NCBI GenBank assembly: GCA_015057325.1
Contig: SVEQ01000001.1
Coordinates: 318,837-382,836 of the forward strand
Reading direction: 5' to 3'
Source of the DNA: Lachnospiraceae bacterium
GTDB taxonomy: Bacteria > Bacillota > Clostridia > Lachnospirales > Lachnospiraceae
Length of the DNA: 64,000 nt
This document shows positions 1-18,018 of the stretch, in pieces (position 1 is the stretch's first letter; each line of letters begins with the position of its first letter). Both the position numbers and the translations under genes were made by a program. Below the pieces are notes generated by a model. The model was not told the DNA's origin and did not search any database. It saw only the letters and a list, made by a program, of their open reading frames with translations.

Positions 1-19
1 ATGGCTTGGTGAACTTAGT

Positions 20-1249
20 GTGGAATATTCATCATCCGGATATTTTACGCTTAAGGTTACTTCTAATGAAGGGGAATTATATTTCCACTCCAATGTTAAT
101 CCACGCATTGAAGGGAAAATATTGGCTGAAGAATATTATGATGTAGATATAGATGAGTATATAGTGTATGGACTATCGCTGGGGTATCATATTAATGCAT
201 TGTTAGATATAGATGATGGCATATCCATTGATATTATAGAGCCTAGATTAGATGTTATATGTGCAGCAATGCACTGTATGGATATGAGCCGATTATTGAC
301 TAATGAAAGGGTGACTATCACCTATGATCCCGGTTATTCTAAAATGAGCAAAATAATAAATGACCGAAAGAAAATGGTTATACATTATCCTACGATGAGA
401 TCAATCAGGGATGATAAAATACGATTATCTTTGCAAAAGTATTTTATACATGAGAGTGGAGTTAGAAAATACCTTGTTAAGTTTAAAAATAACTTTAGGG
501 AGAATATAAAAAATGTAAATGGTTATGTAGATGAATTGAGACCGTTGTTTGCCGGCAAAAATGCAGTACTAGTTGCGGCTGGGCCATCTCTTGACAAGAA
601 TGTACACTTGCTAAAAAAAGTTTCCGAAGGAGTATTGATAGTAGCGGTAGGAACGGTATATCACAAACTTATTAAATTGGGAATTGAGCCTGATTATGTT
701 GTGGTTCTTGATTCACAGGAGAGTACAGCAAAACAGTTTGAGGACTTATATGATATGAATGTTCCGGTACTGATTGCCTCTACAGCAGTAAAAGAAGTAG
801 GCATGAAATATAAAGGTATGAAATATCTTGTTTGCCAAAGAGGCTATAATAAGGCTGAACAGTATGCACTAGAACATAATTATACGCTTTATGATACAGG
901 CGGTTCTGTGAGTACAATTATGTTAGATATATGTCTTAGACTTGGTTGCAAGGAAATTGCGTATATAGGACTTGACCTTGCATATACGAACGATAGAACA
1001 CATTCTAAAGATACAAACGATGTTTGTGAAATTGATGACGAAGATAATATAATCAAAGTTGAAGCAATTGATGGGAGCATGGTCAATGCAAGTCGTGTAT
1101 TTGTTATCTATAGAGAATGGATGGAGAGACGTGCTAAACATGAGGATGCAAAGGGGAAATTAATAGATGCTACTGAAGGTGGGGCGTTGATAGATGGATT
1201 TCGGATTGAAAATCTTGCGTCTGTGCTCAACCGCTTTTCGATGGAATAA
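20..1249 (+). CDS. maf: Maf-type (DUF115 / MptE-like) motility accessory factor, putative flagellin nonulosonic-acid transferase. The frame stays open back to nt 2, so the N-terminus may lie outside the window.
   Basis: 409-aa ORF with GPSLDKN and GGSVSTIMLDICLRLGCKEIAYIGLDLAY segments typical of DUF115 Maf proteins. It lies in a pse island beside flagellin. Confidence 0.7.
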   Translation: MEYSSSGYFTLKVTSNEGELYFHSNVNPRIEGKILAEEYYDVDIDEYIVYGLSLGYHINALLDIDDGISIDIIEPRLDVICAAMHCMDMSRLLTNERVTITYDPGYSKMSKIINDRKKMVIHYPTMRSIRDDKIRLSLQKYFIHESGVRKYLVKFKNNFRENIKNVNGYVDELRPLFAGKNAVLVAAGPSLDKNVHLLKKVSEGVLIVAVGTVYHKLIKLGIEPDYVVVLDSQESTAKQFEDLYDMNVPVLIASTAVKEVGMKYKGMKYLVCQRGYNKAEQYALEHNYTLYDTGGSVSTIMLDICLRLGCKEIAYIGLDLAYTNDRTHSKDTNDVCEIDDEDNIIKVEAIDGSMVNASRVFVIYREWMERRAKHEDAKGKLIDATEGGALIDGFRIENLASVLNRFSME

Positions 1250-1308
1250 ATGGACGACAAATTTTGCTTGTAATGACTAAATGTAGTATAATTGGAGATG
1301 GTGTCGGA

Positions 1309-2487
1309 ATGAAAACTATATTGTTTTGTGAATTCGATGGTTTGGGTGAAAAACAGATTGAAAAGGTATTGAGTAACTTTGGCTATAACGTTGTTACGTA
1401 CAAAAGGAAATGTGAGAATTATGATACGGATAAGAGCTATTATGATTCGTTGCTTGCAATGATTGATTCTGAAAAGCCACAGTATGTGTTTTCGATAAAT
1501 TATCTTCCGATTGTAGCTAAGGTGTGTCGTGTTTACAGAATACTTTATATTTCATGGATATATGATAGCCCGGAGTTACATTTATATTCATCTTCGGTTA
1601 AGAGCCCTTATAATAGGATTTTTCTTTTTGATAAGCTTCAGTATGAAAGATTTCATCATGTTAATCCGGAATCATTCTTTTATATGCCTCTTGCAACAGA
1701 ACCAATGTCGTTGCAAGATATGGATAGCATAACTGCTAAAGAACGGGAACAATATAACGCGGATGTAGTTTTTATAGGCTCTTTGTATAATGAAACTAAT
1801 AAGAATTTTCATGATATTAAGAAGCTTAATCCGTATATAAAAGGCTGGATAGAAAGTGTTGCCAATTCCCAAAGCCTTGTGCAAGGATATAATTTTATTG
1901 AGGATGCCTTGACAGATGAATTGGTTGAAAGTATTAAGACTGGGTTACAATATGAACTGATTGATGACTATGAAGGTGCTGATAAAGAAATAATTGCCGA
2001 TATATATATTGGATCCTATGCAAGTTACAAAGATAGGGTTTGTACATTACAAAAGATAGCAAAGAAATATCCGCTTACAATATACACAGGTAGTGATACA
2101 AGTGAGTTGAACGGTGTGATTAATAAAGGCATAGCTTATACAGATTCTATGATGCCCAAAATATTCAATCAGGCCAAGATTAATATTAATATTACATCTA
2201 AGACGATTCGTAGTGGAATACCCCTTAGGGTGTTTGATGTGCTCGGAAGCAGAGGATTTCTGATTACTAACTATCAGCCGGAATTGTTGGATTATTTTGA
2301 ACCCGGTAAGGATTTGGTTATTTATAATAGTCATGATGAATTGGATGAGTTGATAGGATATTATTTGAAGCATGACAATGCCAGAGAGAACATTGCGGAG
2401 CACGGCTGGAATACTGTAAGAGAAAACTATACTTATGAGAAGATGATTTCTTTAATATTTGAGTTTGTAAAAAACAAAATCAGCTAA
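1309..2487 (+). CDS. CgeB-like glycosyltransferase-family protein (DUF3880 + Glyco_trans_1_2 type)
   Basis: C-terminal LRVFDVLGSRGFLITNYQPELLDYFEPGKDLVIYNSHDELDELIGYYLKHDNARENIAEHGWNTVRENYTYEKM matches the CgeB-family tail. Clear paralog of the C-terminal half of ORF 19186..21447. Start moved to ATG 1309 (GGAG 8 nt upstream). Confidence 0.6.
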   Translation: MKTILFCEFDGLGEKQIEKVLSNFGYNVVTYKRKCENYDTDKSYYDSLLAMIDSEKPQYVFSINYLPIVAKVCRVYRILYISWIYDSPELHLYSSSVKSPYNRIFLFDKLQYERFHHVNPESFFYMPLATEPMSLQDMDSITAKEREQYNADVVFIGSLYNETNKNFHDIKKLNPYIKGWIESVANSQSLVQGYNFIEDALTDELVESIKTGLQYELIDDYEGADKEIIADIYIGSYASYKDRVCTLQKIAKKYPLTIYTGSDTSELNGVINKGIAYTDSMMPKIFNQAKININITSKTIRSGIPLRVFDVLGSRGFLITNYQPELLDYFEPGKDLVIYNSHDELDELIGYYLKHDNARENIAEHGWNTVRENYTYEKMISLIFEFVKNKIS

Positions 2488-2510: not shown

Positions 2511-3500
2511 ATGCTTAATGACAAGGTGATACTAGTTACAGGAGGAACGGGGTCTTTTGGAAAGAAATTTCTTGAAATGGTTTTCGAAAAATATACTCCG
2601 AAAAAGGTGATCATTTATTCACGTGATGAATTTAAGCAAAGCGTTATGCAGAGTGACTATAAGGATAAAGTTGATATGAGCAGAGTTCGCTTCTTTATCG
2701 GTGACGTGAGAGATAAAGAAAGGATGTTTCGCGCCTTTGATGGAGTTGATTATGTTATTCATGCGGCCGCAATGAAGCAGGTCCCTACATGTGAATATAA
2801 TCCAATGGAAGCAATAAAGACTAATATTCATGGTGCTCAGAATGTAATAGAGACTGCTTTAGACAGGGGGGTCAAGAAAGTAGTTGCGTTATCAACTGAT
2901 AAAGCAGTTAACCCGATTAATCTATATGGTGGTACTAAGCTGGTTTCTGACAAATTATTCATAGCTGCTAACGCATATAGTGGCCAGAATGGAACCGTTT
3001 TTTCAGTCGTAAGGTATGGTAATGTTGCAGGAAGCCGTGGGTCGGTTATTCCGATATGGAAGAAAATAATAGATGATGGTGGAACAACGCTAGGGGTTAC
3101 TGATATGCGTATGACACGTTTCTGGATAACACTTGAGCAGGGAGTTGAATTGGTGTTCAAGGCGTTGGAAGAGTCTAAAGGCGGTGAAACATACATATCA
3201 AAAATTCCATCATTCCATATTGGAGATCTTGCTAAGGCAATGCTTCCAGAGTGTACGATAGATGAGTTCGGAATCCGAGAGGGCGAGAAACTTCATGAGG
3301 TTATGATTACGAAGGATGATTCCAGATCAACATATGAATATGATAAACATTATATAATATATCCGAATTATACGTGGGCAAGTGATTCCAATATCTTACC
3401 GGGAGGAAAACCTGTGGGGGAAGGTTTTGAATACAATTCGGGTAATAATGTTGAATGGTTGTCGGAGGAACAGCTAAGAGAGGCGTTGAAGAGGATATAG
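2511..3500 (+). CDS. pseB: UDP-N-acetylglucosamine 4,6-dehydratase (inverting), PseB/FlaA1 type
   Basis: VTGGTGSFGKKF Rossmann motif, YSRDEFKQ, FFIGDVRD, HAAAMKQVPTCEYNP, STDKAVNPINLYGGTKL, VRYGNVAGSRGSVIP. Genomic context with pseC/G/I/F. Confidence 0.85.
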   Translation: MLNDKVILVTGGTGSFGKKFLEMVFEKYTPKKVIIYSRDEFKQSVMQSDYKDKVDMSRVRFFIGDVRDKERMFRAFDGVDYVIHAAAMKQVPTCEYNPMEAIKTNIHGAQNVIETALDRGVKKVVALSTDKAVNPINLYGGTKLVSDKLFIAANAYSGQNGTVFSVVRYGNVAGSRGSVIPIWKKIIDDGGTTLGVTDMRMTRFWITLEQGVELVFKALEESKGGETYISKIPSFHIGDLAKAMLPECTIDEFGIREGEKLHEVMITKDDSRSTYEYDKHYIIYPNYTWASDSNILPGGKPVGEGFEYNSGNNVEWLSEEQLREALKRI

Positions 3501-3560: not shown

Positions 3561-4145
3561 ATGGAGAAAATGCAATTTAAGGCAGTTGAATTAAAATTTC
3601 TTTCTGACGATATAATAAAACAGATTAGAAATTGGAGAAACCAGGATTTTGTTAGATTACAAATGTTTACACAAGATATTATAGGGGAAAAAGAACATAT
3701 CAAGTGGGTAGAAACTATTAAAAAAGATGAAAATCGACATTTGTTTGTTTTTTTTCTTGATGACAAGCCGTTTGCGGTTGTTCAGAGTAGGTATTATCCT
3801 GAATATGATTATGTTGAGACAGGAGACTATCTAATTTCTACAGATTATCAGGCATTGGGTTATGGAACATTTTTGAAGTATTATACTAATGAGATTATGT
3901 ATTACGTTCTGAACTATAATACAATTCATGGAGAAATTTTAGATACTAATAAAAAGAATATTAATGTTGGGAAAAGACTTTTTAATAACGTTAAGAAAGT
4001 AGAAGAACCACGCATTGTTGCTGGTGAATTTCATGACGTTTATATAATTGATAGTTGTAAATCAGATTGGGAGAATAATCAAAAACGCCATCTTGAAAAA
4101 CTAGTGAATCGCTTTATTGACTCAGATATAGAGATAATGATTTAA
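3561..4145 (+). CDS. PseH-like GNAT N-acyltransferase
   Basis: IRNWRNQDFVRLQMF...EHIKWVETIKKDENRHLFVFFLDDKPFAVVQ follows the WRN...H..W...F.v pattern of PseH-type GNATs. It sits directly upstream of an ACP gene. Confidence 0.55.
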   Translation: MEKMQFKAVELKFLSDDIIKQIRNWRNQDFVRLQMFTQDIIGEKEHIKWVETIKKDENRHLFVFFLDDKPFAVVQSRYYPEYDYVETGDYLISTDYQALGYGTFLKYYTNEIMYYVLNYNTIHGEILDTNKKNINVGKRLFNNVKKVEEPRIVAGEFHDVYIIDSCKSDWENNQKRHLEKLVNRFIDSDIEIMI

Positions 4146-4161
4146 GAAATGGAGGACATAT

Positions 4162-4377
4162 ATGAATAATAAGGATAAGATTAAAATATTAAAGGAAATA
4201 TTGGACTGTGAAAGTGAAATAACACCGGAAACAGCTTTGTCGGATTTGGATGAGTGGGATTCTGTTGCTATTCTTTCGTTTATTGCAATGATGGATGATG
4301 AGTTTGGTAAGGAAGTAAAGGGCTCCGTAATAAGACAGTTTGTAACAGTTCAAGATGCCCTTGATTGCATGGAGTAG
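4162..4377 (+). CDS. Acyl carrier protein (stand-alone, island-specific)
   Basis: 71 aa, acidic. LDEWDSVAILSFIAMMDDEFG carries the DS phosphopantetheine-attachment motif at the start of helix 2. Confidence 0.75.
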   Translation: MNNKDKIKILKEILDCESEITPETALSDLDEWDSVAILSFIAMMDDEFGKEVKGSVIRQFVTVQDALDCME

Positions 4378-4385
4378 TTTGTCAA

Positions 4386-5429
4386 ATGAAGGGTAAGCAA
4401 TTTATAAAATCAGAAGTAACTGGAATTGCTTGTGCAATTCCTACTAAAACAGAAGAAGCAAATTTATACCTTGAACAGTTTGGGGAAAATGCTGTTAAGA
4501 GATTTGTTGATGCAACTGGAATAATTCAGCGTCGCGTATCTAATGGGAAGCAGACGGCATCAGATTTGTGTTATGTTGCAGCTAGGGAATTGATGGGTAG
4601 CAAGGGACTTACCGGAGATGATATTGATGCGTTGATTTTTATGACACAATTTCCTGACTACAAGATACCATCCACAGCATATGTTTTGCAATATCGTCTA
4701 GGAATAAAAAAAGAATGTATGGTTTTTGATGTTAACTTGGGATGCTCGGCATTTGTTAATGGTATATATTTTTTGAGTGGGATGATTGAAAGTGGTACAA
4801 TTGAAAGAGCGCTCTTACTAATAGGAGATGTTGATATTGAATCAGAAAAAAAAGCAAATATCTCGTTTTCTATGATGTTCGGAGATGCGGGGGCTGCATG
4901 CATTGTTGAACGTGGTGTTGGTAGAATAAATGGGATGATACGGTCTGACGGTTCCGGCTATAGAACAATAATAACGCCTAGACCGGGTGCGAGATTCCCT
5001 GAAAAAACAGATGAACCCATGACAAAAAAGATGAATGGAGAAGATACATTTTTATTTACTATTACAAAAGTTCCAAAGCTTTTTAAGGAGTTTTTCACAG
5101 AGTTTTCCTGTGATAAAGACGAGTTTGATTATTATATTCTTCATCAGGCCAATTCAATGATAATTCAACAAATAGCAAAAAAATTGAAAGTGCATGTTGA
5201 CAAATTTCCGATTTCACTTGATAAATATGGAAATACGGACGGTGCCTCTATACCGGTTACTATTGTTGATTTGTGTCAAAAAATAAAAAAATCTCAAAAG
5301 CTTAAGTTAATAGTATCTGGTTTTGGTGTTGGTTTGTCGTGGGGGATTGTTTCGTTCGAAATTGATTCAAATAGCGTGCTTCCGATTATTGAGACTGATG
5401 AGTATTATATTGAAGGGAGAACAATATGA
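4386..5429 (+). CDS. KAS III (FabH)-like 3-oxoacyl-ACP synthase / acyltransferase
   Basis: Cys-His-Asn triad contexts are present: NLGCSAF, ILHQANSMI, YGNTDGASIP. Thiolase-fold length. ATG 4386 preferred over TTG 4365. Confidence 0.75.
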   Translation: MKGKQFIKSEVTGIACAIPTKTEEANLYLEQFGENAVKRFVDATGIIQRRVSNGKQTASDLCYVAARELMGSKGLTGDDIDALIFMTQFPDYKIPSTAYVLQYRLGIKKECMVFDVNLGCSAFVNGIYFLSGMIESGTIERALLLIGDVDIESEKKANISFSMMFGDAGAACIVERGVGRINGMIRSDGSGYRTIITPRPGARFPEKTDEPMTKKMNGEDTFLFTITKVPKLFKEFFTEFSCDKDEFDYYILHQANSMIIQQIAKKLKVHVDKFPISLDKYGNTDGASIPVTIVDLCQKIKKSQKLKLIVSGFGVGLSWGIVSFEIDSNSVLPIIETDEYYIEGRTI

Positions 5430-6181
5430 CGAATCCATTCGATTTTACACATAAAAAAATAGTAATTACAGGTGCTACATCAGGAATTGGACTCACGACT
5501 GCAATTATGCTGGCAAAACAAGGGGCTATAATTCATGCGGTTGGAAGAAGAGAGGAAGCTTTGATAGATGTAATGAACCGACTTGATGGAGACTGTCATA
5601 GATATCATATTGAGGATTTATGCGGAGATGTTAATTATAGAAAGCTTTTTGATGAAATTGTTTCGGATGGGAAAAAGATAGATGGAATGGTCTATTGTGC
5701 TGGAATTGCAAAAGTATTACCGGTTAATATAGTAAATTATAAAAACATGGACGAAACAATGCGTGTTAATTTTTATTCATTTATTGAGATGGTTTCTGCG
5801 TTATCAAAAAAAAGGTATCATGAAAATACAAGTATAGTGGCGGTTTCATCAATAGCAGCTGAATATCCTGGAAAGTGTCAGGGAATATATGCAGCATCGA
5901 AGGCGGCTATGAATACAATGGTACAGTCTCTTGCGCTTGAGTTAACAGAAAAGGATATCAGAATTAATACAGTTATGCCTGCGTCAACAAATACTAGAAT
6001 GCTTAATGAAGCTAATGAAAACCGAGGGCAAAAGGAAGTTGAGAGAGAAATACATAAACAACTTCTTGGGTTGGAGGAACCTGAAGATATATCAAATGTA
6101 ATAATGTTTTTATTAAGCGACGCTTCTCGTGTGATAACAGGCAGAGCAATATATGCTGATGCTGGATACATTGATTTTTAA
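5426..6181 (+). CDS. Short-chain dehydrogenase/reductase, FabG-like (3-oxoacyl-carrier-protein reductase candidate)
   Basis: ITGATSGIG (TGxxxGxG), VSSIAA catalytic Ser region, YAASKAA (YxxxK). 4-nt overlap with the upstream KAS III gene. Confidence 0.8.
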   Translation: MTNPFDFTHKKIVITGATSGIGLTTAIMLAKQGAIIHAVGRREEALIDVMNRLDGDCHRYHIEDLCGDVNYRKLFDEIVSDGKKIDGMVYCAGIAKVLPVNIVNYKNMDETMRVNFYSFIEMVSALSKKRYHENTSIVAVSSIAAEYPGKCQGIYAASKAAMNTMVQSLALELTEKDIRINTVMPASTNTRMLNEANENRGQKEVEREIHKQLLGLEEPEDISNVIMFLLSDASRVITGRAIYADAGYIDF

Positions 6182-6198
6182 GATATTTAGAGGTTGGT

Positions 6199-7269
6199 AT
6201 GGAAGTTGTTTTTAAAAATAAAAAAATAAGCGGAATTTTATCGGTATTACCTGAAACAGAGAGTTATTTTGATGACGAAATTGGTAATTATAATTTTCCT
6301 GAAAAGCAAACAAAGAGACTTAAAAAGATAATGGGGTATAATAAGCATAGAATATCAAAAGACTCAAGTACGGCATCTGACTTCTGTGTAGAAGGTCTTA
6401 ATTATTTGTTGGATGAAAATTTAATTAAAAAGGAAGAAATTGGGGCGATAATAGTTGTTGGACTTTCGCCTGATTATTTTTTGCCACAAATAAGTAATAT
6501 AATACATGGTAAATGCGAGCTTGCGCAGGATGTACTGTGTATTGATATGCCACAGGGGTGTTGTGGCTATTTATTAGGATTGATGGAAGCATTTATGCTT
6601 CTTGAACATATGAATAAAAAAATAGTACTTTTCAACGCGGATGTATTAAGTCATAAGGTGTCAAAGTATGATCGCAGTGATTATCCATTAATTGGTGATG
6701 TGACTACCATTAGCGTCATTGAGAATGATGATGATGGAAAAGAGATTGAATTTAGATTATTTACTGATGGTAGTAGTCGCAATAATTTACAAATACCTGC
6801 AGGTGGATTTGCAATGCCTTCAACACCGGATACAGCAAAAATGGTGGTGATGGAAGATGGAAATAAAAGAAGTTTAGACAATCTGCATATGAACGGTGGA
6901 GAAGTATTCAATTTTGTACAGCGAGAAGTTCCACCTATGCTTGAAAAGATGCTTTCAGATTTAGGAAAAGACAAGGAATCTTTTGAATATTTCTTGTTTC
7001 ATCAGCCTAATCGTTTTATGCTAGAAAAACTTACAGATACATTGAATATTCCATACGAGAAGGTGTTTATGAATGTTGTTGAGAATTATGGCAATCCTAG
7101 TGGAGCATCAATTCCAACGGCTATTGTGCAGAATTTATCAGAGCAAATGGTAACTGAGAGGAAATACAAATGCTGTATGTCTGCTTTTGGAGCTGGTTTG
7201 ACTTGGGGAGCTATGTTTCTTGAATTAGGGAACATGTCTTTCTGTAGAATGATTGAGACAAATTTATAG
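6199..7269 (+). CDS. Second KAS III (FabH)-like enzyme
   Basis: Triad contexts PQGCCGY, LFHQPNRFM, YGNPSGASIP. Diverged paralog of 4386..5429. Confidence 0.7.
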   Translation: MEVVFKNKKISGILSVLPETESYFDDEIGNYNFPEKQTKRLKKIMGYNKHRISKDSSTASDFCVEGLNYLLDENLIKKEEIGAIIVVGLSPDYFLPQISNIIHGKCELAQDVLCIDMPQGCCGYLLGLMEAFMLLEHMNKKIVLFNADVLSHKVSKYDRSDYPLIGDVTTISVIENDDDGKEIEFRLFTDGSSRNNLQIPAGGFAMPSTPDTAKMVVMEDGNKRSLDNLHMNGGEVFNFVQREVPPMLEKMLSDLGKDKESFEYFLFHQPNRFMLEKLTDTLNIPYEKVFMNVVENYGNPSGASIPTAIVQNLSEQMVTERKYKCCMSAFGAGLTWGAMFLELGNMSFCRMIETNL

Positions 7270-7278
7270 GTATTAGAG

Positions 7279-8088
7279 ATGAGTAATCAAACTAAAGACT
7301 TAATTCAAATAAAAGTTCATAAAGAAATGATTGATATGTATTTAAAAACAATTGAGACTGAAAAACAATACTCTAATTGTTACTTTAAAAGGGCTGAGGC
7401 AAACCAGATAATAGAGAATAGTCTTGCGTTTTATACATATAAAAATGGTTTTTTATTGTTTGCTGAAGGAAGAGGGTACATAAAACTATATTTCTGTACG
7501 GACGATTTTGGTTGGGTGAGTGATTTATCACGAATAAAAGAAGACATAGACATATCTGAATTTGCAATAGAAGTTGTTTCAAAAGAAGAAAAGCCGTATA
7601 ACTTGAATGATGTAGTGCCATATACGCATATTAAACAATACATGAGATATAGAAGAGTAGGAAATCCGGCAGATGATAAAAGTGATAACGAATGTGTTAC
7701 ATATTGTCTTGAGAATGATACAGCGCGTATAAAAGAGATGTTAGATGCTTATTTCACACCTATTGGAGATGAATTGCCAACGGAACAAGAAATAAAAGAA
7801 TTCATTATTAAGGGTAATGTTATCTGCATAAAGGAAAAGGATAATTTATGTGGATATATCATCTTTGAAGATAAAGGAAAAACATCATATATTAGAAACA
7901 TATGTGTTGATGAACAATATAGAGGACTAGGAATAGGAAAGGAATTGTTAGATAAGTATAATGGACTTCATAAGGGATTTAAAGTGTTTACGTTGTGGTG
8001 TAATAGCAATAATGAAAATGCGTTAAAACTATATTCTTTAGCTGGATATTGCTTTGATAATCTTCTAAATACAATATACATTTGTTAA
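7279..8088 (+). CDS. Two-domain protein: unknown N-terminal domain plus C-terminal GNAT acyltransferase
   Basis: C-terminal IRNICVDEQYRGLGIGKELL (acetyl-CoA/pantetheine-binding Q/RxxGxG/A motif) and NENALKLYSLAGY. Confidence 0.6.
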   Translation: MSNQTKDLIQIKVHKEMIDMYLKTIETEKQYSNCYFKRAEANQIIENSLAFYTYKNGFLLFAEGRGYIKLYFCTDDFGWVSDLSRIKEDIDISEFAIEVVSKEEKPYNLNDVVPYTHIKQYMRYRRVGNPADDKSDNECVTYCLENDTARIKEMLDAYFTPIGDELPTEQEIKEFIIKGNVICIKEKDNLCGYIIFEDKGKTSYIRNICVDEQYRGLGIGKELLDKYNGLHKGFKVFTLWCNSNNENALKLYSLAGYCFDNLLNTIYIC

Positions 8089-8139
8089 TTGGTTATAGTA
8101 ATTAAAGAAAAAATATTTTATTTAAAAGGAGAAACTAAA

Positions 8140-8370
8140 ATGAATGAAATTTATGAGATTTTAAAAGAATTAAGACCGGAATTTGATTTTACTGACAGTG
8201 AGGATTTTGTTGAAGATGGATATCTTGATTCATTTGACATTATTTCACTTGTATCAACAATTGAAGATAAATATTCAATTAAAATTTCTGGCTTAGATGT
8301 ATTGCCGGAGAATTTTTGTTCTGTTGATGCAATTGTAGCTTTAATAAAGAAAAATCATGGAAATATCTAA
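8140..8370 (+). CDS. DltC-like (D-alanyl-type) peptidyl/aminoacyl carrier protein
   Basis: 76 aa. EDGYLDSFDIISLVSTIEDKY closely mirrors the DltC EEGLLDSFGTVELL serine-attachment region. AGGAG RBS before ATG 8140. Confidence 0.7.
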   Translation: MNEIYEILKELRPEFDFTDSEDFVEDGYLDSFDIISLVSTIEDKYSIKISGLDVLPENFCSVDAIVALIKKNHGNI

Positions 8371-8389
8371 TTAATTAGGAGGGAATACC

Positions 8390-9925
8390 ATGAGAACAAC
8401 GGTTTTGTCATATTTAGAAGATAGTGCGGTAAAATATTCTGATAAGGTAGCTTTTTTTGATAACGATAATAATATAACATTTTCTGAGTTGAGAAATGTA
8501 GCTACTCATCTTGGCTTTTTTATTAAAAGTCAACTTTTAGGAAAAAGAAATCCTGTTCTTGTGTATCTACCTAAAGATATTACCAGTATTATTGCCTTTA
8601 TGGGAATATTATATAGTGGGAATTTTTATACACCGACGGATATAAGATTTCCTGCTGAAAAGGTGATAAGTGTTATGAAAGCACTAAAACCTAAGGCTGT
8701 AGTTGTTAACAATAAAACAAAAGAAAAATTTTTGAAATTTGTAAACGAATGGGATGTTAAATTAATAAACATAGATGAAATAGAATTGAACAAGGATTTA
8801 TATGTTGATTCTAAGCCTTTAATTGACAACATATTAGATGTTGACCCGGTATATGTATTCTTTACATCAGGTTCTACAGGTGTTCCAAAAGGTGTTATTA
8901 TCAATAATCATAATGTGATAGATTATACTGATTGGGCAGTAGAACATCTTCCGATTAGTGAAAAAAGCATTATGGGAAGTCAGTCTCCGTTTTATTTTGA
9001 TATTTCAACACAGGACATTTATTCTACATTGAAGACAGGTGCAACACTTGGAATCATTCCGCCACAATATTTTGCGTTCCCGGCGAAAGTGCTTCAATTT
9101 ATAAAAGAGAGACATATTAATTTTCTATATTGGGTTCCATCTGCGTTTGTTAATATAGCTAATTTTGACTTGTTAAAATCAATTAGGTTGGATGAAGTAG
9201 AACTCATTATGTTTGGTGGAGAAGTGATGCCTGTCAAACAATTGAATTATTGGAAAAAATATCTACCCAATTTGAAAACAATTGCTAATGTTTATGGCCC
9301 TACTGAAGCAACGGTAAATTGTACATATTATATAGTGAATAGAGAGTTTTCTGATTCAGATACGTTACCGTTAGGAAAAGCGTGTGAAAATACAGGTCTT
9401 CTTGTGCTTGATGAAGATGGAATAGAAGTGCATAAATCAGACGTTGGTAAACAGGGAGAATTGTGTGTATATGGAAGCTCGTTATCAGCAGGTTATTGGA
9501 ATGATGAGGAAAAAACAAATGAAAAATATATAAATAATCCATTGAGTAAATATTATAAAGAGAAAATGTATCTTACTGGTGATATTGTTTGCTATAATGA
9601 TTTAGGAGAACTTGTTTTTGTCGGAAGAAAAGATTTTCAGATAAAGCATTCAGGATATCGGATAGAATTAGGTGAGATAGAGGCTGCTGCAATTGGTAAT
9701 GAAAAAATATCTAATGTTTGTTCGTCATATGATTCAAAAAATAAGAAGATTGTTCTTTTTTATCAAGGTGACATAGATGATAATGAGTTAAAGGATTATC
9801 TTTTGGAAATAATCCCTAAATATATGGTTCCAACAGTTTATTATAAGCTTGATAGATTTCCGTATAATGATAACGGAAAGATTGATAGAAAGAAATTGAA
9901 TGAGGAGTATATACAAAATAAATAG
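8390..9925 (+). CDS. DltA-like amino-acid adenylating enzyme (carrier-protein ligase, ANL superfamily)
   Basis: FTSGSTGVPKGV (A3), SPFYFDISTQD (A4 with the Asp that binds a substrate alpha-amino group), NVYGPTEATV (A5), YLTGD (A7), GRKDFQIKHSGYRIELGEIE (A8), NGKIDRKK (A10). About 510 aa like DltA. Confidence 0.8.
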   Translation: MRTTVLSYLEDSAVKYSDKVAFFDNDNNITFSELRNVATHLGFFIKSQLLGKRNPVLVYLPKDITSIIAFMGILYSGNFYTPTDIRFPAEKVISVMKALKPKAVVVNNKTKEKFLKFVNEWDVKLINIDEIELNKDLYVDSKPLIDNILDVDPVYVFFTSGSTGVPKGVIINNHNVIDYTDWAVEHLPISEKSIMGSQSPFYFDISTQDIYSTLKTGATLGIIPPQYFAFPAKVLQFIKERHINFLYWVPSAFVNIANFDLLKSIRLDEVELIMFGGEVMPVKQLNYWKKYLPNLKTIANVYGPTEATVNCTYYIVNREFSDSDTLPLGKACENTGLLVLDEDGIEVHKSDVGKQGELCVYGSSLSAGYWNDEEKTNEKYINNPLSKYYKEKMYLTGDIVCYNDLGELVFVGRKDFQIKHSGYRIELGEIEAAAIGNEKISNVCSSYDSKNKKIVLFYQGDIDDNELKDYLLEIIPKYMVPTVYYKLDRFPYNDNGKIDRKKLNEEYIQNK

Positions 9926-10204: not shown

Positions 10205-10660
10205 TTAAATAGTTTTGATATATTTAATCCATTTTCGCTGCTCGATTTCTTCATATTTTAATACTTCAAACACTCTTCTTGATATATGGTTATCTTTTTT
10301 TACATATGCAACATAAAACTCACCATCTTTACGAAGACATGGATCGTTAAGGAGTTTCTCTTCCATCAGTGAAACAATATTTTGCCCCATATGTCTTCCT
10401 CGAAAAGCTCGGTCAATGCTATATGAAATGACAAGTTCATCATACCAATAGGTAAGACGGATTTGCCCAACGGGTATACCGTCTTCTTCCATAATGAATA
10501 TTTCTATGTCATCACGATCTAGCGCGTTATTATACCAATGAACGTGAGTTTCGTAAGGTATTTCGTCGGAGTTAAAAGAAGCATTTCTTACATCAGGGTC
10601 ATTTCTCCAACGGTATATGATGTCAATATCATTTGTTGTTGCATGTCGTAATAATAACAT
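10205..10660 (-). CDS. pseH: GNAT N-acetyltransferase, PseH-like
   Basis: IIYRWRNDPDVRNASF...THVHWYNNAL...IFIMEEDGIPVGQIRL and RGRHMGQNIV motif. Small (151 aa) and inside the pse island. Confidence 0.55.
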   Translation of the reverse strand: MLLLRHATTNDIDIIYRWRNDPDVRNASFNSDEIPYETHVHWYNNALDRDDIEIFIMEEDGIPVGQIRLTYWYDELVISYSIDRAFRGRHMGQNIVSLMEEKLLNDPCLRKDGEFYVAYVKKDNHISRRVFEVLKYEEIEQRKWIKYIKTI

Positions 10661-10761: not shown

Positions 10762-10788
10762 ATAAAGTTTTAAAATATTGCTCCGATA
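10762..10788 (+). promoter_or_regulatory. Sigma-28 (SigD/FliA)-type promoter of the flagellin gene
   Basis: TAAA (10762-10765), 15-nt spacer, TCCGATAT (10781-10788). Consensus is TAAA-N15-GCCGATAT. Confidence 0.65.
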
Positions 10789-10848
10789 TAAATAGTGTAA
10801 ATGATAATAGCCCTTGCGATACAGGATGTTGTTAAGAGATGCCTTAGC

Positions 10849-10906: not shown

Positions 10907-11728
10907 ATGGTAGTACAACACAACATGCAAGCAGTAAATGCAAATAGAATGCTTGGAGGTAACGTTAAGGCGGTATCTAAGAACACAGAAAAACTTTCTT
11001 CAGGATATAAGGTTAATAGAGCAGCAGATGATGCAGCAGGACTTTCTATATCAGAGAAGATGAGAAATCAGATTAGAGGTATCAATCAGGCAGTATCCAA
11101 TTCAGAAGATGGTCAGTATCTTATTCAGACAGCAGAAGGTAATATGAATGAGATTCATTCAATTCTTCAACGTATGGGAGAACTTGCTACAAAGGCAGCT
11201 AATGATGTTAATGCAACAGAAGATCGTATATCTATTCATGACGAGTTAGCACAGTTATCATCTGAAATAGATTCGATTGCAAGAAAGGCACAGTTTAATG
11301 GAACATATTTATTGAATGGTGGAATGTCAGCTGGTAAATATTTACAGGTTGGCGCTAATGCAGGAGAGAATATGGTAATCTCAATCGAGACCATGACAGC
11401 AGCAAAGTTATCTGTTGATGGACCGAATCTCAGCGTTGGTTCTCATTCTGCAGCATCATCAGTAATGACAAGGATAACAGCGGCAGTTAAGAGAGTATCA
11501 GCAGCTCGTTCCAAACTTGGAGCTATTCAGAATCGTCTTGATTATACTATAAACAATTTGGAGAACTATTCTGAAAATCTCACAGCATCTGAATCAAATA
11601 TTCGTGATACAGATATGGCTACTGAGATGGTTGCATATTCTAAGAATCAGATTCTTCAGCAGGCAGCACAGTCAATGCTTTCGCAAGCTAATCAGTCAAC
11701 ACAGGGTGTTATGTCATTACTTCAGTAA
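10907..11728 (+). CDS. fliC: Flagellin (short, 273 aa)
   Basis: N-terminal MVVQHNMQAVNANRML...LSSGYKVNRAADDAAGLSISEKMR and C-terminal LGAIQNRLDYTINNL...AQSMLSQANQSTQGVMSLLQ are canonical D0/D1 segments. Confidence 0.95.
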   Translation: MVVQHNMQAVNANRMLGGNVKAVSKNTEKLSSGYKVNRAADDAAGLSISEKMRNQIRGINQAVSNSEDGQYLIQTAEGNMNEIHSILQRMGELATKAANDVNATEDRISIHDELAQLSSEIDSIARKAQFNGTYLLNGGMSAGKYLQVGANAGENMVISIETMTAAKLSVDGPNLSVGSHSAASSVMTRITAAVKRVSAARSKLGAIQNRLDYTINNLENYSENLTASESNIRDTDMATEMVAYSKNQILQQAAQSMLSQANQSTQGVMSLLQ

Positions 11729-11751: not shown

Positions 11752-11786
11752 GGTGGAACGTAAATTATTTACGTTCCACCTTTTTT
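11752..11786. terminator. Rho-independent terminator after flagellin, overlapping the 3' end of the convergent gene
   Basis: GGTGGAACGTAAAT / ATTTACGTTCCACC palindrome followed by TTTTTT. Confidence 0.7.
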
Positions 11787-13072
11787 ACATCAACAAGATA
11801 TTGAAATGTATCAAATTGTTCCCGCTCTGCTACTCCTTCAATTGAAAGAAGTTTATTAAAAAAATCTTCAAATTGACGAGTCGTGTTCAGTTGAAGGATT
11901 CGGCGTAGCATATTAACAATTTGAAAATCTAAACGTTCAAACATACGGATGATTTCGTTCGCTGTAAAGAATCTCATATGCGTGCGATCGAGGATTCCAG
12001 AATCTTGATAGGTGAAATTACCTCTGAGAAGCTCATATATTACGGCGGCATGCATCAAATTTGGAATACTGCATAATATATGTCCATCTGGTTTTAGATA
12101 TGGTTTGAGTTTTTTAAGGACTTCTTCCGGATATCTAAGGTGCTCGATAACATCACCACATATGATATAATCAAAAATTTCGGGTGAGTACTCAAAATCC
12201 ATATTTTCCACATCGCCACATACAATATTTAATGATGGATCGGCTGTTTCTGCCACCTCTTTAACATATTCAACGCCGTGTACTTCTGAATTTGGGAAGT
12301 TGTTCTTGATATATTCAAGTGTTGCACCTGAACCGCATCCAATTTCGAGAATGTTAATGGATGCCAGTTTGTCAGAAGTAATCAATTCTACGAGATCCTT
12401 GCGGATATTGGAATAGTATGAGTTAAGATTATAGGATTTGATGAATTTATCCCGTTCGTCGTAATAATAATCTAGATTCATGAAACCTGCATCATGAATA
12501 CACCAAGGTTGTTTCATGTTTGGTACCACTACCTTATGGCCGGCATTTATAAACTCGAAGCTTTGCGAGACATCATAAAAATCCCACTTGTCGAAAACGT
12601 CATCTCTCCATGGGATATCATATTGTGTTGCCATTAGGAAACCATCGATTGCTTGAACTTCTTGATATTCTCCGTGGACTTCTCCGAGAACCCAATCATC
12701 CATGTGCGAAACATTACAACAGTATAGTCGTCCTATACGTCCACCGTGCCACATGACATAATCATCAGGAAGTGTCGGAGCGCCAACCATACCAATCATA
12801 CCGACGGTCTTATCGTGAAATATGTTTAGTATTTTTGAGATGAAATATTTGTCAATAATCATTGTATCCTGGTGAAGATATACTTTGTATTTTGCATCTG
12901 ATGCGCTCATCCCTTCGTTATAACCTGCTGCCATACCTGTGGCACCCCAAACAGAGAGTGAGTCGATACTGTATCCTTCCGGGATGTGAAGACGATTGAT
13001 ATAATACAACGCCTCAGCTTCGTATTCCTTATTATTGACACACATTATAAAACATATTTTTTTTTCGTTCAC
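11765..13072 (-). CDS. Fusion protein: GT-A-like glycosyltransferase domain plus class I SAM-dependent methyltransferase
   Basis: N-terminal half is paralogous to the C-terminal half of 13717..14811 (YNEGMSASDAKYKVYLHQD, IPWRDDVFDKWDFYD, WCIHDAGF). C-terminal half has ILEIGCGSGATLEYI (SAM motif I) and IICGDVIEHL. GTG start with AGGAGG 7 nt upstream. Confidence 0.65.
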   Translation of the reverse strand: MNEKKICFIMCVNNKEYEAEALYYINRLHIPEGYSIDSLSVWGATGMAAGYNEGMSASDAKYKVYLHQDTMIIDKYFISKILNIFHDKTVGMIGMVGAPTLPDDYVMWHGGRIGRLYCCNVSHMDDWVLGEVHGEYQEVQAIDGFLMATQYDIPWRDDVFDKWDFYDVSQSFEFINAGHKVVVPNMKQPWCIHDAGFMNLDYYYDERDKFIKSYNLNSYYSNIRKDLVELITSDKLASINILEIGCGSGATLEYIKNNFPNSEVHGVEYVKEVAETADPSLNIVCGDVENMDFEYSPEIFDYIICGDVIEHLRYPEEVLKKLKPYLKPDGHILCSIPNLMHAAVIYELLRGNFTYQDSGILDRTHMRFFTANEIIRMFERLDFQIVNMLRRILQLNTTRQFEDFFNKLLSIEGVAEREQFDTFQYLVDVKKVERK

Positions 13073-13505: not shown

Positions 13506-13716
13506 TGCAAAACTCCCTTGGAAAGTAATATAGATAGTATAACAGAATTTGGTAAAAAAGTATATATAGCGTTGCGATGCACGAGACTAAATTAATTTTA
13601 AGATGGAGATTTAAATGTTAATTGACTTTTTTTACTGTCAAATTTAAAATAAAAAAGGGGAGATTATTTAAGATTGATGATGTGGTAATGAATGGTGGAA
13701 AAGGTATGGAGTGGTT

Positions 13717-14811
13717 ATGAATACAGATGAACTGATAAATATAATTAATAAAAATCTCGAAAAAAGATTATATTCTTGCGTCTTTGAACTTGTTTTAAAT
13801 AATGCGGAGATAATTAAGAAATCCAATGAATTAAGTTACTTTTATTATTTGTGTTTGTTGAATAAAGAAGATTATGAAAAGCAAGGGAAGCTTGGAATTA
13901 TACAAAATAGAGAGTCTGTCCAAGATGTTATTGATACCTATTTGGGCTTTAGACGTCTGATTCAGAGGATGGCTTACTGCTCTGAATATGATGGTTCGGA
14001 CTTGCTGGAAATTATGAATGAATTAGGTGTTAATGTCAAAGAATTAATCTGGACGATTAACTCAGCTACATTTAATTCTGCAGAGGCGATAGAGAAAGTT
14101 AAGGGTAACCCGGGTGCTATATCTGTAGGTTTATCGACCTATACACCCAAACATAAATATCAGGATGTGAGGCTTGACTTTATAATTTGTAGCAATGATG
14201 CGCAGGAATTAGATGAAGCACTTTATTATATTAGTAGATTATATATTCCGGAAGGTGTCGAGATAGATGTTCTTTCGATAGAAGATGCCCAATCTATGTG
14301 TGCCGGTTATAACGAAGGAATGAGGGCTTCATCTGCAAAGTATAAAGTATATATGCATCATGATGTAAGGATAATAGAAAGAAATTTCATTCCGATGTTG
14401 ATAGATACCTTTATGGAACATGAAGATGCGGGTATAATCGGTATGATTGGTACAAATGGTTTCCCGAAAGATGGAATTATGTGGAATATTGAACGATTTG
14501 GTTCTGTGTGGGATACACATATACATGAGACTACGGAAATACGTTTATATCCGAGTAAAAATGATGTTGAAGTGATGTTATGTGATGGACTTCTTTTAGC
14601 AACGCAGTACGACGTACCTTGGCGGGATGATATTTTTGACGGTTGGGATTTTTATGACGCATCTCAATGCATGGAGTTTAAACGCAAGGGTTATAAGGTT
14701 ATTGTACCGTATCAGGACAGTAGTTGGTGTATTCATGATTGTGGATTTTTGAATTTCAAACAATATGATCATTATAAAGATTTATTTCTTGCAGAATATA
14801 CCGGTGTATGA
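13717..14811 (+). CDS. Helical N-terminal domain fused to a GT-A-like glycosyltransferase domain (candidate flagellin O-glycosyltransferase)
   Basis: YNEGMRASSAKYKVYMHHD, VPWRDDIFDGWDFYD, WCIHDCGF. Paralog of the N-terminal half of 11765..13072. ATG 13717 has GGAG 6 nt upstream. Confidence 0.6.
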   Translation: MNTDELINIINKNLEKRLYSCVFELVLNNAEIIKKSNELSYFYYLCLLNKEDYEKQGKLGIIQNRESVQDVIDTYLGFRRLIQRMAYCSEYDGSDLLEIMNELGVNVKELIWTINSATFNSAEAIEKVKGNPGAISVGLSTYTPKHKYQDVRLDFIICSNDAQELDEALYYISRLYIPEGVEIDVLSIEDAQSMCAGYNEGMRASSAKYKVYMHHDVRIIERNFIPMLIDTFMEHEDAGIIGMIGTNGFPKDGIMWNIERFGSVWDTHIHETTEIRLYPSKNDVEVMLCDGLLLATQYDVPWRDDIFDGWDFYDASQCMEFKRKGYKVIVPYQDSSWCIHDCGFLNFKQYDHYKDLFLAEYTGV

Positions 14812-14879
14812 GGTAATGTTTCGGTTATGAAGGTCGATATATAATTATATAACAAAATGATAGGGAGATGAGGCGTGAT

Positions 14880-15572
14880 ATGGAGAAAAAAAGTATTGCA
14901 ATAATAACTGCAAGGGGTGGTAGTAAGAGAATACCAAAAAAGAATATTAAGGATTTTTGTGGAAAGCCTATAATTGCATATTCTATAGAGGCAGCACTAC
15001 AATCAAGACTTTTTGATGAAGTGATGGTTTCGACTGACAGTGAGGAGATAGCAGAAGTGGCAAGAAAATGTGGTGCGTCAGTACCATTTATGAGAAGCGA
15101 GAAGACATCAGACGATTTTGCTACAACCAACGACGTCTTGAAAGAAGTGATTTTGGAATATAAGAAAATCGGAAAGGAATACGATATAGTCGTTTGTTTG
15201 TACCCTACGGCGCCGTTTGTTACATCGGATAAATTGGTGGAAGCTATATCTTTGATGGATAAAGAATGTGTTGATAGTGTTACACCGGTGGTAAAATACT
15301 CCTTCCCACCGCAAAGAGCTTTTGTTATAAGAGATGGTTTTGTGCAGTATCAGTTCCCAGAGAACAAAACAAAACGTTCGCAGGATCTTGAAACTATATA
15401 TCATGATTGTGGACAGTTTTATGTTATGAAAACGGAAATAATATTTGGAGAAAAGAGTACTAATAAAACCGCACCAATGATTATATCGGAATTAGAGGTG
15501 CAAGACATTGACAACGAAACAGATTGGAAATTGGCGGAGCTCAAGTATAAATTAATGATGAATAAATATTGA
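14880..15572 (+). CDS. pseF: CMP-pseudaminic acid synthetase (acylneuraminate cytidylyltransferase family)
   Basis: IAIITARGGSKRIPKKNIKDFCGKPIIAYSIEAA...VSTDSEEIAEVA is the CMP-NeuAc-synthetase-family N-terminus. pse context. Confidence 0.8.
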   Translation: MEKKSIAIITARGGSKRIPKKNIKDFCGKPIIAYSIEAALQSRLFDEVMVSTDSEEIAEVARKCGASVPFMRSEKTSDDFATTNDVLKEVILEYKKIGKEYDIVVCLYPTAPFVTSDKLVEAISLMDKECVDSVTPVVKYSFPPQRAFVIRDGFVQYQFPENKTKRSQDLETIYHDCGQFYVMKTEIIFGEKSTNKTAPMIISELEVQDIDNETDWKLAELKYKLMMNKY

Positions 15573-15583
15573 TATGAGTATGA

Positions 15584-15808: not shown

Positions 15809-15837
15809 ATGATATTATAAATTGTGGAGGGGTACAC

Positions 15838-16887: not shown

Positions 16888-16946
16888 TATTTTGGATTAA
16901 TCAGTAGATGGCAAGACGGAAGTTTTGGAATGTAAGGGATAGGAGT

Positions 16947-18017: not shown

Positions 18018-18018
18018 T

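Follow-up and report, generated by a model that had tools for sequence, protein, structure and literature searches.

The closest counterpart with experimental support for the acyl half of the locus analysed here is the viosamine island of Pseudomonas syringae pv. tabaci. It comprises vioA, vioS encoding a KAS III (synthase III for beta-ketoacyl-ACP; ACP, acyl carrier protein), acp, vioR encoding a 3-oxoacyl-ACP reductase, the acyltransferase gene vioB, vioM and vioT, and deletion of vioR abolished Qui4N(3-hydroxybutanoyl)2Me (Qui4N, 4-amino-4,6-dideoxyglucose) on flagellin (PMC3927599). Island counterparts in the a-type strain Pseudomonas aeruginosa PAK are OrfA-E, of which OrfB-E are homologues of Vio proteins (PMC3927599). 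The subject of this study is an eight-gene cassette from a Lachnospiraceae bacterium, located between pseB and a flagellin gene at positions 3561-9925 of a 64-kb stretch of DNA (GenBank assembly GCA_015057325.1, contig SVEQ01000001.1, positions 318,837 to 382,836; the whole stretch is referred to as the window). Judging from gene content and context, this cassette is, on balance, probably a carrier-protein-dependent side-chain factory which feeds the pseudaminic acid (Pse) pathway of flagellin glycosylation. Its most likely product is an N-acyl pseudaminic acid with a 3-hydroxyacyl and a small amino-acid substituent.

The cassette is a real and well-delimited feature. It consists of eight intact, co-directional open reading frames (ORFs) on the + strand with a spacing of -4 to 60 nt, flanked by genes for Maf, a glycosyltransferase and PseF, PseI, PseG and PseC, and identical gene calls recur on 23 independent metagenomic or metagenome-assembled genome (MAG) contigs annotated as Lachnospiraceae. 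An initial annotation of the same DNA had already described eight tightly packed genes between pseB and the flagellin gene; all of these ORFs were recovered with the same boundaries, their families agreed, and each of the motifs it had quoted is present in the sequence. Families were assigned to the following ORFs with Pfam and NCBIfam models (GNAT, GCN5-related N-acetyltransferase; SDR, short-chain dehydrogenase/reductase):

3561..4145, + strand: c1, a small PseH-type GNAT (full-length TIGR03585 match, 63.9 bits, cut-off 93.1; QALGYG pyrophosphate-binding motif)
4162..4377, + strand: ACP1, a PP-binding carrier (PF00550; DEWDSV serine motif)
4386..5429, + strand: KAS3a, a KAS III (ACP_syn_III and ACP_syn_III_C domains; PRK09352 201 bits)
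5426..6181, + strand: FabG-like SDR ketoreductase (adh_short_C2 154.6 bits; TGATSGIG and YAASK)
6199..7269, + strand: KAS3b, a second KAS III (PRK12880 209 bits over the full length; best PDB match 4EFI)
7279..8088, + strand: tandem two-domain GNAT of 269 aa (AlphaFold2 and Foldseek)
8140..8370, + strand: CP2, a DltC/ACP-like carrier (PF00550; weak DltC, ACP and AmcB matches; GYLDSF motif)
8390..9925, + strand: DltA-like stand-alone amino-acid adenylase (TIGR01733 307 bits; DltA models 290-300 bits; FYFDIS)

According to the gene calls on related contigs, ATG 4386 and ATG 8140 are the likely starts of KAS3a and CP2, with TTG 4365 and TTG 8089 being possible ORF starts. From the comparison with related loci, the eight genes can be split into two modules, namely c1, ACP1, KAS3a and SDR (module 1) and KAS3b, tandem GNAT, CP2 and adenylase (module 2).

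Relation to described carrier-protein systems

Module 1 and the viosamine island both combine a KAS III and a FabG-like reductase with a free-standing ACP, and in both cases an aminotransferase and an N-acyltransferase are encoded close by, within a locus for flagellin glycosylation. Gene content and context of the window thus include what defines a viosamine-type module, i.e., ACP, KAS III and reductase next to an aminotransferase-made 4-amino sugar in a flagellin island. Module 1 resembles the viosamine system closely enough that, by analogy, it may work in the same way, most simply making 3-hydroxybutanoyl. The likeness is one of gene content and context. The viosamine island acts on dTDP-viosamine and not on a Pse precursor, uses a 213-aa dTDP-viosamine acetyltransferase where small PseH-type GNATs are found here, and lacks an adenylase, a second carrier, a second KAS III and a tandem GNAT.

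The flagellin islands of Aeromonas group II and of enterobacteria contain sets of ACP, 3-oxoacyl-ACP reductase, AMP-dependent synthetase, LuxE and LuxC genes, to which a speculative 'liposugar' role has been ascribed (PMC7874193, PMC4875605). Like the cassette, these sets place a carrier and fatty-acid-like genes between pse genes, and three related loci (L014, L021 and L053) carry the same LuxE-LuxC-ligase-ACP set beside KAS3b, CP2 and adenylase. Unlike the cassette, the sets contain no KAS III, DltA-like adenylase or tandem GNAT, while the window contains no LuxC or LuxE. A further comparable locus is the flagellar glycosylation locus of Campylobacter jejuni NCTC 11168 with Cj1299 (acpP2) and Cj1303 (fabH2) (PMC6109747, PMC3229698). 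In the searchable literature, genes of the Cj1299/Cj1303 type are not biochemically characterised, and recent papers on flagellar glycosylation in C. jejuni and Clostridium did not mention ACP, FabH or adenylase genes. The C. jejuni locus presumably also includes Cj1298 (an N-acetyltransferase), Cj1304 (an ACP), Cj1307 (an 'amino acid activating enzyme') and Cj1308 (an ACP). It would thereby have a GNAT, ACPs, a FabH and a DltA-like adenylase between pseB/C and pseF/G/H, a likeness by parts list, and it is not known to hold a tandem GNAT or a second KAS III.

What module 2 and the Dlt system have in common is an adenylase that stands alone and a small carrier. Both proteins, however, miss the Dlt equivalog cut-offs (adenylase: TIGR01734 290 vs 559.85 bits, PRK04813 299.8 vs 476 bits; CP2: TIGR01688 16.7 vs 52.35 bits, PRK05087 25.6 vs 68 bits). 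The partners here, KAS III and tandem GNAT, are cytoplasmic, and Gly in the FGGE motif replaces the Cys/Ser of the Dlt-like outgroup. A teichoic-acid Dlt system was rejected for this window as it holds neither DltB nor DltD. This agrees with the initial annotation, which had excluded teichoic-acid D-alanylation, even though the nearest outgroup of the adenylase still belongs to an MBOAT-linked, Dlt-like set from Christensenella (37-40% identity; specificity code DVKSVFLCNK vs DIQSIFVVNK in the window). In butirosin biosynthesis, BtrI, BtrJ, BtrK and BtrH likewise build an amino-acid-derived chain on a stand-alone carrier, which is then N-transferred to an amino sugar; that pathway employs an ATP-grasp ligase instead of an adenylase, has no KAS III and leads to an aminoglycoside antibiotic, not to a protein glycan.

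Substituents of the kind expected here are chemically known. Pse5Ac7(3-hydroxybutanoyl) has been assigned to the psaABCGHF genes of Acinetobacter baumannii (PMC9676051) and to Escherichia coli O165 (PMC7685785). These cases fall into the same candidate product class, with 3-hydroxybutanoyl at N7 of Pse by a swap of PseH/PseG equivalents. In A. baumannii only psaG and psaH replace psaD and psaE, and the tabulated module has no ACP, KAS III or reductase; the acyl donor there, we infer, comes from general metabolism. Further examples are Qui4N with N-[3-hydroxybutanoyl]-D-alanyl (E. coli O123, Salmonella enterica O58), D- and L-alanyl forms on 4-amino sugars, the legionaminic acid Leg5Ac7Ala with the 'alanyltransferase' Lea3 (E. 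coli O161), and amino sugars that bear N-acetylalanyl, N-acetylglycyl or 3,5-dihydroxyhexanoyl groups (PMC7685785, PMC3210612). Such hybrid and aminoacyl substituents on 4-amino sugars and nonulosonates are the products that one of the two routes considered below (route A) predicts, although there they belong to the O-antigens of Gram-negative bacteria. In the literature searched, no link of O-antigen aminoacyl substituents to carrier-protein genes was found, and a blastn search with 6199-9925 against E. coli genomes, aimed at the O123 and O161 clusters, gave no match.

Literature searches also yielded no paper in which nonulosonates are connected with adenylation and carrier proteins, none on Pse glycosylation of Lachnospiraceae flagellin and none that combines perosamine, tetronate and acyl carrier protein. 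The initial annotation considered the combined acyl and aminoacyl cassette a new tailoring system. For the acyl half this does not hold, given vioS/acp/vioR/vioB of P. syringae and the ACP/FabG/AMP-ligase sets of Aeromonas and enterobacteria; for module 2 it may hold, with the unit of DltA-like and DltC-like proteins, KAS III and tandem GNAT appearing to be undescribed.

The enzymes of the two modules

Gene content, intact catalytic motifs, conservation of the modules and genomic context are established for this cassette. Both KAS III enzymes, which share 25.6% identity, possess the intact Cys/His/Asn triad that had been noted initially. Read against the E. coli FabH sequence, this triad is kept in 20/20 orthologues of KAS3a and 25/26 of KAS3b (45/46 in total). 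The characterised KAS III-like acyltransferases DpsC, OxaC, CerJ and Pau29 show Cys/Ser-His-Asp instead, a triad from which the decarboxylation residue is gone (PMC12308425, PMC4425429), with CerJ and Pau29 acting on sugars (PMC4425429). CerJ, DpsC and Pau29 have the KAS III fold in common with KAS3a and KAS3b, and some of them acylate sugars from coenzyme A (CoA) or carrier thioesters, but their triad differs. As Cys-His-Asn is kept in nearly all orthologues, we read KAS3a and KAS3b as condensing enzymes and not as acyltransferases of the CerJ/DpsC type. The role as a CerJ/ChlB6-type acyltransferase which the initial annotation had offered for a KAS III is disfavoured by the same counts and was rejected, the condensing triad being intact and its Asn retained.

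Both enzymes fall below the cut-offs for housekeeping FabH (KAS3a: TIGR00747 183.8 bits with a cut-off of 292.1, PRK09352 201.1 with 249; KAS3b: 136.6 with 292.1 and 156.8 with 249, respectively). KAS3b is marked by a family-specific HQPN motif, and almost every related locus keeps it in one block with CP2 and the adenylase; none of the KAS3b-specific invariant residues, which were listed, clearly reads out a substrate. The SDR passed the generic SDR Pfam models and reached 115-131 bits with FabG-type models, below their cut-offs (TIGR01830 114.9 vs 297.75). Its cofactor and catalytic motifs are intact, as are the serines of both carriers, ACP1 and CP2.

The small GNAT c1 belongs to a local PseH family, because a homologue with 46% identity fills the pseH slot of a plain pseH-I-G-F cluster without ACP (L056). 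The same homologue led to the rejection of c1 as a member of an ACP-specific enzyme family. The closest relatives of c1 (59% identity in L055, 42% in L057) are followed by ACP, KAS III and SDR genes, and in L057 these three stand alone beside pseC, a pseH-like gene and pseG. Among related loci, the module 1-type genes for ACP, KAS3a and SDR are found in one to three copies. A pairwise PDB search with c1 returned C. jejuni PseH at E = 0.22 only, and the small GNATs were too divergent to be grouped by pairwise BLAST. In the window, c1 is a candidate N4-acyltransferase of the UDP-4-amino sugar.

The two-domain architecture proposed initially for the larger GNAT was borne out by an AlphaFold2 model (pLDDT 91.8), for which Foldseek retrieved VipF, MshD, GlmA, the clavulanate tandem GNAT and WecD, the first four with E values of 3.5e-12 to 1e-8 and TM-scores of 0.5-0.66. 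The amines that its structural relatives acetylate belong to amino sugars or, in the case of MshD, to a sugar-attached amino acid. The family (83 50%-identity clusters at E<=1e-30) has an invariant YSNCY motif in the N-terminal domain and a pyrophosphate-binding RGxGxG motif, here RGLGIG, in the C-terminal domain. Cys34, which is invariant in this family, was rejected as a catalytic nucleophile as it is Phe in the related X274 subfamily; window-type and X274-type enzymes are distantly related (hhalign probability 96.5%).

The adenylase matches adenylation domains of nonribosomal peptide synthetases (NRPS) and DltA in the PDB, lies just under the cut-off of the TIGR01733 domain (307.0 vs 317.4 bits) and contains all core motifs. 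Its relatives with >= 54% identity fall into at least 120 clusters at the 90% identity level. Among 120 of them Asp235 is invariant (120/120) and the specificity code DIQSIFVVNK, which matches no reference code, is kept in 105. Phe301 occupies the pocket in all code classes. From these features a small alpha-amino acid can be inferred as substrate.

Related loci and the reach of the cassette family

The cassette family is abundant, and orthologues of the adenylase with 62-79% identity are present in 23 species-level genomes, among them those of Eubacterium, Roseburia, Lachnoclostridium and Lachnospiraceae bacterium P6B14, which is in culture. For the comparison of loci (named L001-L023, L049, L050 and L052-L060), the window proteins were mapped onto the relatives and the neighbourhoods were annotated with Pfam. 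KAS3b, CP2 and adenylase, usually with the tandem GNAT, occur together in L001-L023, L052-L055 and L058-L060. Module 2 persists despite a shuffling of the gene order, both in Paenibacillus cellulosilyticus and in over 25 loci from Lachnospiraceae. At least five orders were found (KAS3b-GNAT-CP2-adenylase; CP2-KAS3b-GNAT-adenylase; KAS3b-CP2-adenylase; adenylase-CP2-KAS3b; CP2-adenylase-ACP-SDR-KAS3b-GNAT). The tandem GNAT belongs to one of two types, window or X274, and the KAS3b subtype co-varies with it. The two branches which the initial annotation had treated as independent are therefore probably not so, since KAS3b, tandem GNAT, CP2 and adenylase travel as one unit.

In L055, L058, L059 and L060, KAS3b (58-63% identity) and CP2 (57-63%) are better conserved than the adenylase (37-50%), whose code there reads DNL[ST][VI]FLVDK or DI[YF][ST]VFLLDK instead of DIQSIFVVNK. 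L055 repeats the arrangement of Maf, pseB, c1 and cassette, with a formyltransferase in the place of the tandem GNAT; this replacement fits an amine-capping role of the tandem GNAT. Minimal systems (L052, L060) get by with one ketosynthase (KS), which is KAS3b, one SDR, two carriers, one adenylase and one tandem GNAT, together with one AAC(3)-like N-acyltransferase and one hydrolase of the metallo-beta-lactamase (MBL) fold.

With regard to their surroundings, eight of the 23 genome loci have a PseB-like gene (>=40% identity) within 10 kb, two more a NeuB-like gene and three more weaker PseB, PseC or PseG matches. About half of the loci thus lie near such genes, and a complete lack of linkage to pse/leg genes, which the initial annotation had named as an outcome that would speak against it, was not observed. 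The flagellin specificity that it implied did not hold up, as relatives are also found in loci with GT2, EamA, DegT and YfhO genes. In L058 (12371-18417) and L059 (2801-4289, 12932-17992), a cassette of ACP, KAS, SDR, KAS, tandem GNAT, adenylase, carrier and MBL genes is accompanied by a small GNAT and also by GT2, two EamA proteins, DegT and a YfhO protein of very large size, the set from GT2 to YfhO being one for envelope-polymer glycosylation. The gene content of L058 and L059 suggests an N-acylated amino-sugar decoration of a cell-envelope polymer.

Several relatives deserve a separate description. In the Paenibacillus cellulosilyticus strain KACC 14175 (NZ_CP054613.1, around 1.72 Mb; L060 9286-15723), a cultured member of the Bacillales whose record is almost without annotation, the cassette lies directly downstream of secA-prfB in the order ACP, SDR, AAC(3)-like, adenylase, tandem GNAT, CP2, KAS3b (60% identity), MBL. 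L052 (4196-5821, 12329-13204, 13881-16549) contains its own carboxyltransferase and FabD-like acyltransferase for malonyl supply and a trio of an 81-aa protein, an MBOAT and an AlgX-like protein resembling DltX/DltB/DltD. In L053 (1-6864), L014, L021 and L054 (12602-18830), the module occurs with genes for thiamine pyrophosphate-dependent enzymes, NeuB and an HpcH-like aldolase, and in some of them with LuxE, LuxC, AMP-ligase and ACP genes. A Roseburia MAG (L018 1633-9759) shows a run of PseB, sulfotransferase, AAC(3)-like protein, carrier, adenylase, DUF4910/DUF2172, aldo-keto reductase and DegT. Through this compact gene order, aminoacyl carriers are linked directly with a pathway for a 4-amino sugar, and the presence of a sulfotransferase points to a possible sulfated sugar. 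C. jejuni Cj1295, a protein that has been linked to a change of the flagellin glycan, belongs to the DUF4910/DUF2172 family.

Glycosylation island, predicted pathway and alternatives

The genes surrounding the cassette are as follows:

1..1249, + strand: Maf-type flagellin nonulosonate glycosyltransferase (MptE-like and Maf_flag10_N domains; 5' end beyond the window edge)
1264..2487, + strand: glycosyltransferase (Glyco_trans_1_2 and DUF3880; gene call on related contigs starts at 1309)
2511..3500, + strand: PseB, inverting UDP-GlcNAc 4,6-dehydratase (TIGR03589 526.8 bits, cut-off 407.75)
10205..10660, - strand: second small GNAT of PseH/RimL type (Acetyltransf_3 47 bits; partial TIGR03585 match 41.1 bits, cut-off 93.1)
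10763..10789, + strand: sigma-D/sigma-28-like promoter TAAA-N16-CCGATAT (read directly in the sequence; upstream of the start codon of flagellin by about 120 nt)
10907..11728, + strand: flagellin, 273 aa (Flagellin_N 141 bits, Flagellin_C 95 bits)
11765..13072, - strand: Glyco_tranf_2_5 glycosyltransferase fused to an S-adenosylmethionine (SAM) methyltransferase (domain matches)
13711..14811, + strand: Glyco_tranf_2_5 glycosyltransferase (domain match)
14868..15572, + strand: PseF, CMP-pseudaminic acid synthetase (TIGR03584 284.7 bits, cut-off 205.7)
15805..16887, + strand: PseI, pseudaminic acid synthase (TIGR03586 477.7 bits, cut-off 340.25)
16908..18017, + strand: PseG, UDP-sugar hydrolase (TIGR03590 187.8 bits, cut-off 153.55)
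18001..19155, + strand: PseC, aminotransferase making the 4-amino sugar (TIGR03588 519.8 bits, cut-off 423.5)
19186..21447, + strand: large GT2-family glycosyltransferase, the last gene of the island (followed by SpoVT at 21533)

PseB, PseC, PseG, PseI and PseF all score above their equivalog cut-offs. No GNAT of the window reaches the TIGR03585 cut-off for the PseH step; with the c1 family filling the pseH slot in L056, the PseH function is probably present in a divergent form. Maf and flagellin genes adjoin these nonulosonate genes, as is characteristic of a flagellin O-glycosylation island, and the cassette, which the initial annotation saw as wired into a flagellin Pse pathway, indeed sits within this Pse/Maf/flagellin island. 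The complete Maf gene codes for 544-554 aa on L049 and L050, where a second Maf of 566 aa lies upstream. The minus-strand GNAT at 10205-10660, between adenylase and flagellin, has MJ1062 and C. jejuni PseH as its closest PDB chains. GC content is 0.30-0.37 over positions 1-16000 and 0.39-0.44 over 16000-64000, which fits a hypervariable or horizontally exchanged island. A 136-aa protein without Pfam match is encoded near the flagellin gene (13095-13505, - strand), and next to it the second Glyco_tranf_2_5 enzyme has an N-terminal extension of about 150 aa without domain match (13711-14200, + strand).

Tblastn and Pfam scans of the 64-kb window gave no MBOAT/DltB, DltD/AlgX, FabD, AAC(3)-like, MBL, LuxC or LuxE protein and no further carrier. 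Rfam and tRNA scans of the window and a megablast search of the cassette against plasmids had no match, and a promoter and terminator scan of 1-19500 gave counts at or below those of shuffled sequence, which have no bearing on operon structure. The remaining window holds housekeeping genes (SpoVT, SpoIIE, TilS, FtsH, NrdD, PtsI, UvrC, HprK, MurB). Two full-length FtsH paralogues with AAA and Peptidase_M41 domains lie less than 15 kb apart (27789-29621 and 42427-44538), and a GGDEF-EAL protein is encoded at 36100-38031, around 15 kb from the flagellar glycosylation island.

A branch that condenses and then reduces to a 3-hydroxyacyl group, next to an aminoacyl-carrier branch, had been proposed initially and remains the natural reading of the gene content; the substrates, the acceptor position and the order of steps given in the following are predicted. 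KAS3a would condense a C2 primer with malonyl-ACP1, and the SDR would reduce the 3-oxo group to a short 3-hydroxyacyl thioester, most simply 3-hydroxybutanoyl. PseB and PseC would supply UDP-4-amino-4,6-dideoxy-AltNAc (AltNAc, N-acetylaltrosamine), whose C4 amine would receive an acyl instead of an acetyl group from a small PseH-type GNAT, either c1 or the minus-strand enzyme at 10205-10660. PseG, PseI and PseF would then lead to a CMP-Pse5Ac7(acyl) donor for transfer to flagellin by a Maf enzyme. In module 2, the adenylase would load a small alpha-amino acid onto CP2, KAS3b would act as a decarboxylating condensing enzyme, and the tandem GNAT would acylate an amine on the nascent side chain.

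Module 2 could follow either of two routes, which fit equally well and are each put forward tentatively. In route A, the tandem GNAT would join the 3-hydroxyacyl group to the amine of aminoacyl-S-CP2, giving an N-(3-hydroxyacyl)-aminoacyl substituent, a product type known on Qui4N of E. coli O123. In route B, aminoacyl-S-CP2 would be the starter of KAS3b, with the SDR reducing the product and the tandem GNAT N-acetylating the resulting 4-amino-3-hydroxyacyl chain. With alanine as the amino acid, both routes result in an isobaric side chain of C7H11NO3. A more elaborate version, which we regard as speculative, is that KAS3b extends an aminoacyl starter from the DltC-like carrier with malonyl-ACP to a 4-acylamino-3-hydroxyacyl ('statine-like') chain. 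This chain, after reduction and N-acetylation by the tandem GNAT or, in the L055 variant, N-formylation, would be amide-linked to flagellin Pse, and other Clostridia and Paenibacillus would employ the same system on amino sugars of the cell envelope. The presence of modules, small GNATs and Maf genes in pairs may likewise be compatible with two different Pse derivatives.

Several points weigh against a side-chain factory dedicated to flagellin Pse. None of the 23 genome loci has a flagellin gene within 10 kb and only one has Maf, so that a flagellar destination appears to be a property of this locus and of L055 and not of the cassette family. Because relatives lack flagellin nearby and some of them stand in YfhO-type loci, the family is better described, from its gene neighbourhoods, as a portable amino-sugar tailoring kit with a locus-specific flagellar use. 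c1 may simply be an acetyl-CoA-using PseH, as its context in L056 suggests, which would leave the acceptor position unassigned. For its two KS the window offers only a single SDR and a single ACP-type carrier, which leaves the assignment of steps under-determined, and it contains no FabD, phosphopantetheinyl transferase or thioesterase, which must be supplied from elsewhere in the genome. The amino-acid prediction relies on a motif-derived code without matching reference code, and the size (Ala/Gly) and the D- or L-configuration are a guess. The E. coli FabH residues Trp32 and Arg151, which contact the CoA adenine, are not conserved in the KAS III pair, which hints at carrier-bound primers. 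Lastly, the source is an uncultured MAG.

Among the rival explanations, it seems unlikely that two independent branches, one for 3-hydroxyacyl-S-ACP and one for aminoacyl-S-carrier, decorate different positions of Pse, with a KAS III homologue of the CerJ/ChlB6 kind passing a group from carrier to sugar as an O- or N-acyltransferase. The pairs of carriers and of KAS III in one cassette would suit this idea, as would the existence of the sugar-acylating KAS III-like enzymes CerJ and Pau29 (PMC4425429), the constant company of KAS3b with CP2 and adenylase, and the loci L014, L021 and L053, in which these three occur without an SDR in the flanks. The decarboxylation triad of KAS3b, which is Cys-His-Asn in 25/26 orthologues as opposed to Cys/Ser-His-Asp in characterised acyltransferase homologues (PMC12308425, PMC4425429), argues against it, and dedicated N-acyltransferase candidates (small GNATs, AAC(3)-like) are available in every locus.

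Quite unlikely, in our estimate, is a merely co-located cassette which serves another glycoconjugate, e.g., a teichoic-acid-like or other envelope polymer or an S-layer glycan, and leaves flagellin with plain Pse5Ac7Ac and c1 as an ordinary PseH. The L058 and L059 cassettes (KAS3b 59-63% identical) beside GT2, EamA pair, DegT and YfhO, the MBOAT and AlgX-like genes in L052 and the c1 homologue in a plain pse cluster without any ACP point in that direction. In the window, however, the cassette is wedged between pseB and the other pse genes at 16-60 nt from its neighbours, no YfhO, flippase or MBOAT is encoded within 64 kb, and L055 repeats Maf, pseB, c1 and cassette. A small hybrid cluster of fatty acid synthase (FAS) and NRPS type for a free metabolite unrelated to glycans, for instance an N-acylated amino acid or a compound of tetramate type, appears very unlikely. 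Adenylase, carriers, KS and ketoreductase are, admittedly, a generic natural-product toolkit, the MBL-fold hydrolase of many relatives could release a product, and no pse gene lies within 14 kb of the copy in Paenibacillus. Yet the window has no condensation domain, thioesterase or transporter, and the cassette recurs beside amino-sugar genes (DegT, PseB, NeuB) and sugar N-acyltransferase families.

If the preferred reading of the cassette as a side-chain factory for flagellin Pse is true, it would supply the genes and enzymes that have been missing for the formation of hybrid hydroxyacyl-aminoacyl N-substituents, which have been chemically known on bacterial amino sugars for decades. The statine-like version, if true, would represent a free-standing, trans-acting hand-off from NRPS to FAS for glycan tailoring, with a swappable amino-acid input, since the three adenylase specificity codes suggest swapping. 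Two strains in culture, Paenibacillus cellulosilyticus KACC 14175 and Lachnospiraceae bacterium P6B14, possess members of the cassette family. In the gut microbiota, flagellins of Lachnospiraceae act as major antigens. The side-chain factory, if true, may also represent a new use of KAS III, tandem GNAT and DltA/DltC-like parts, as a modular and swappable platform for the tailoring of sugars.

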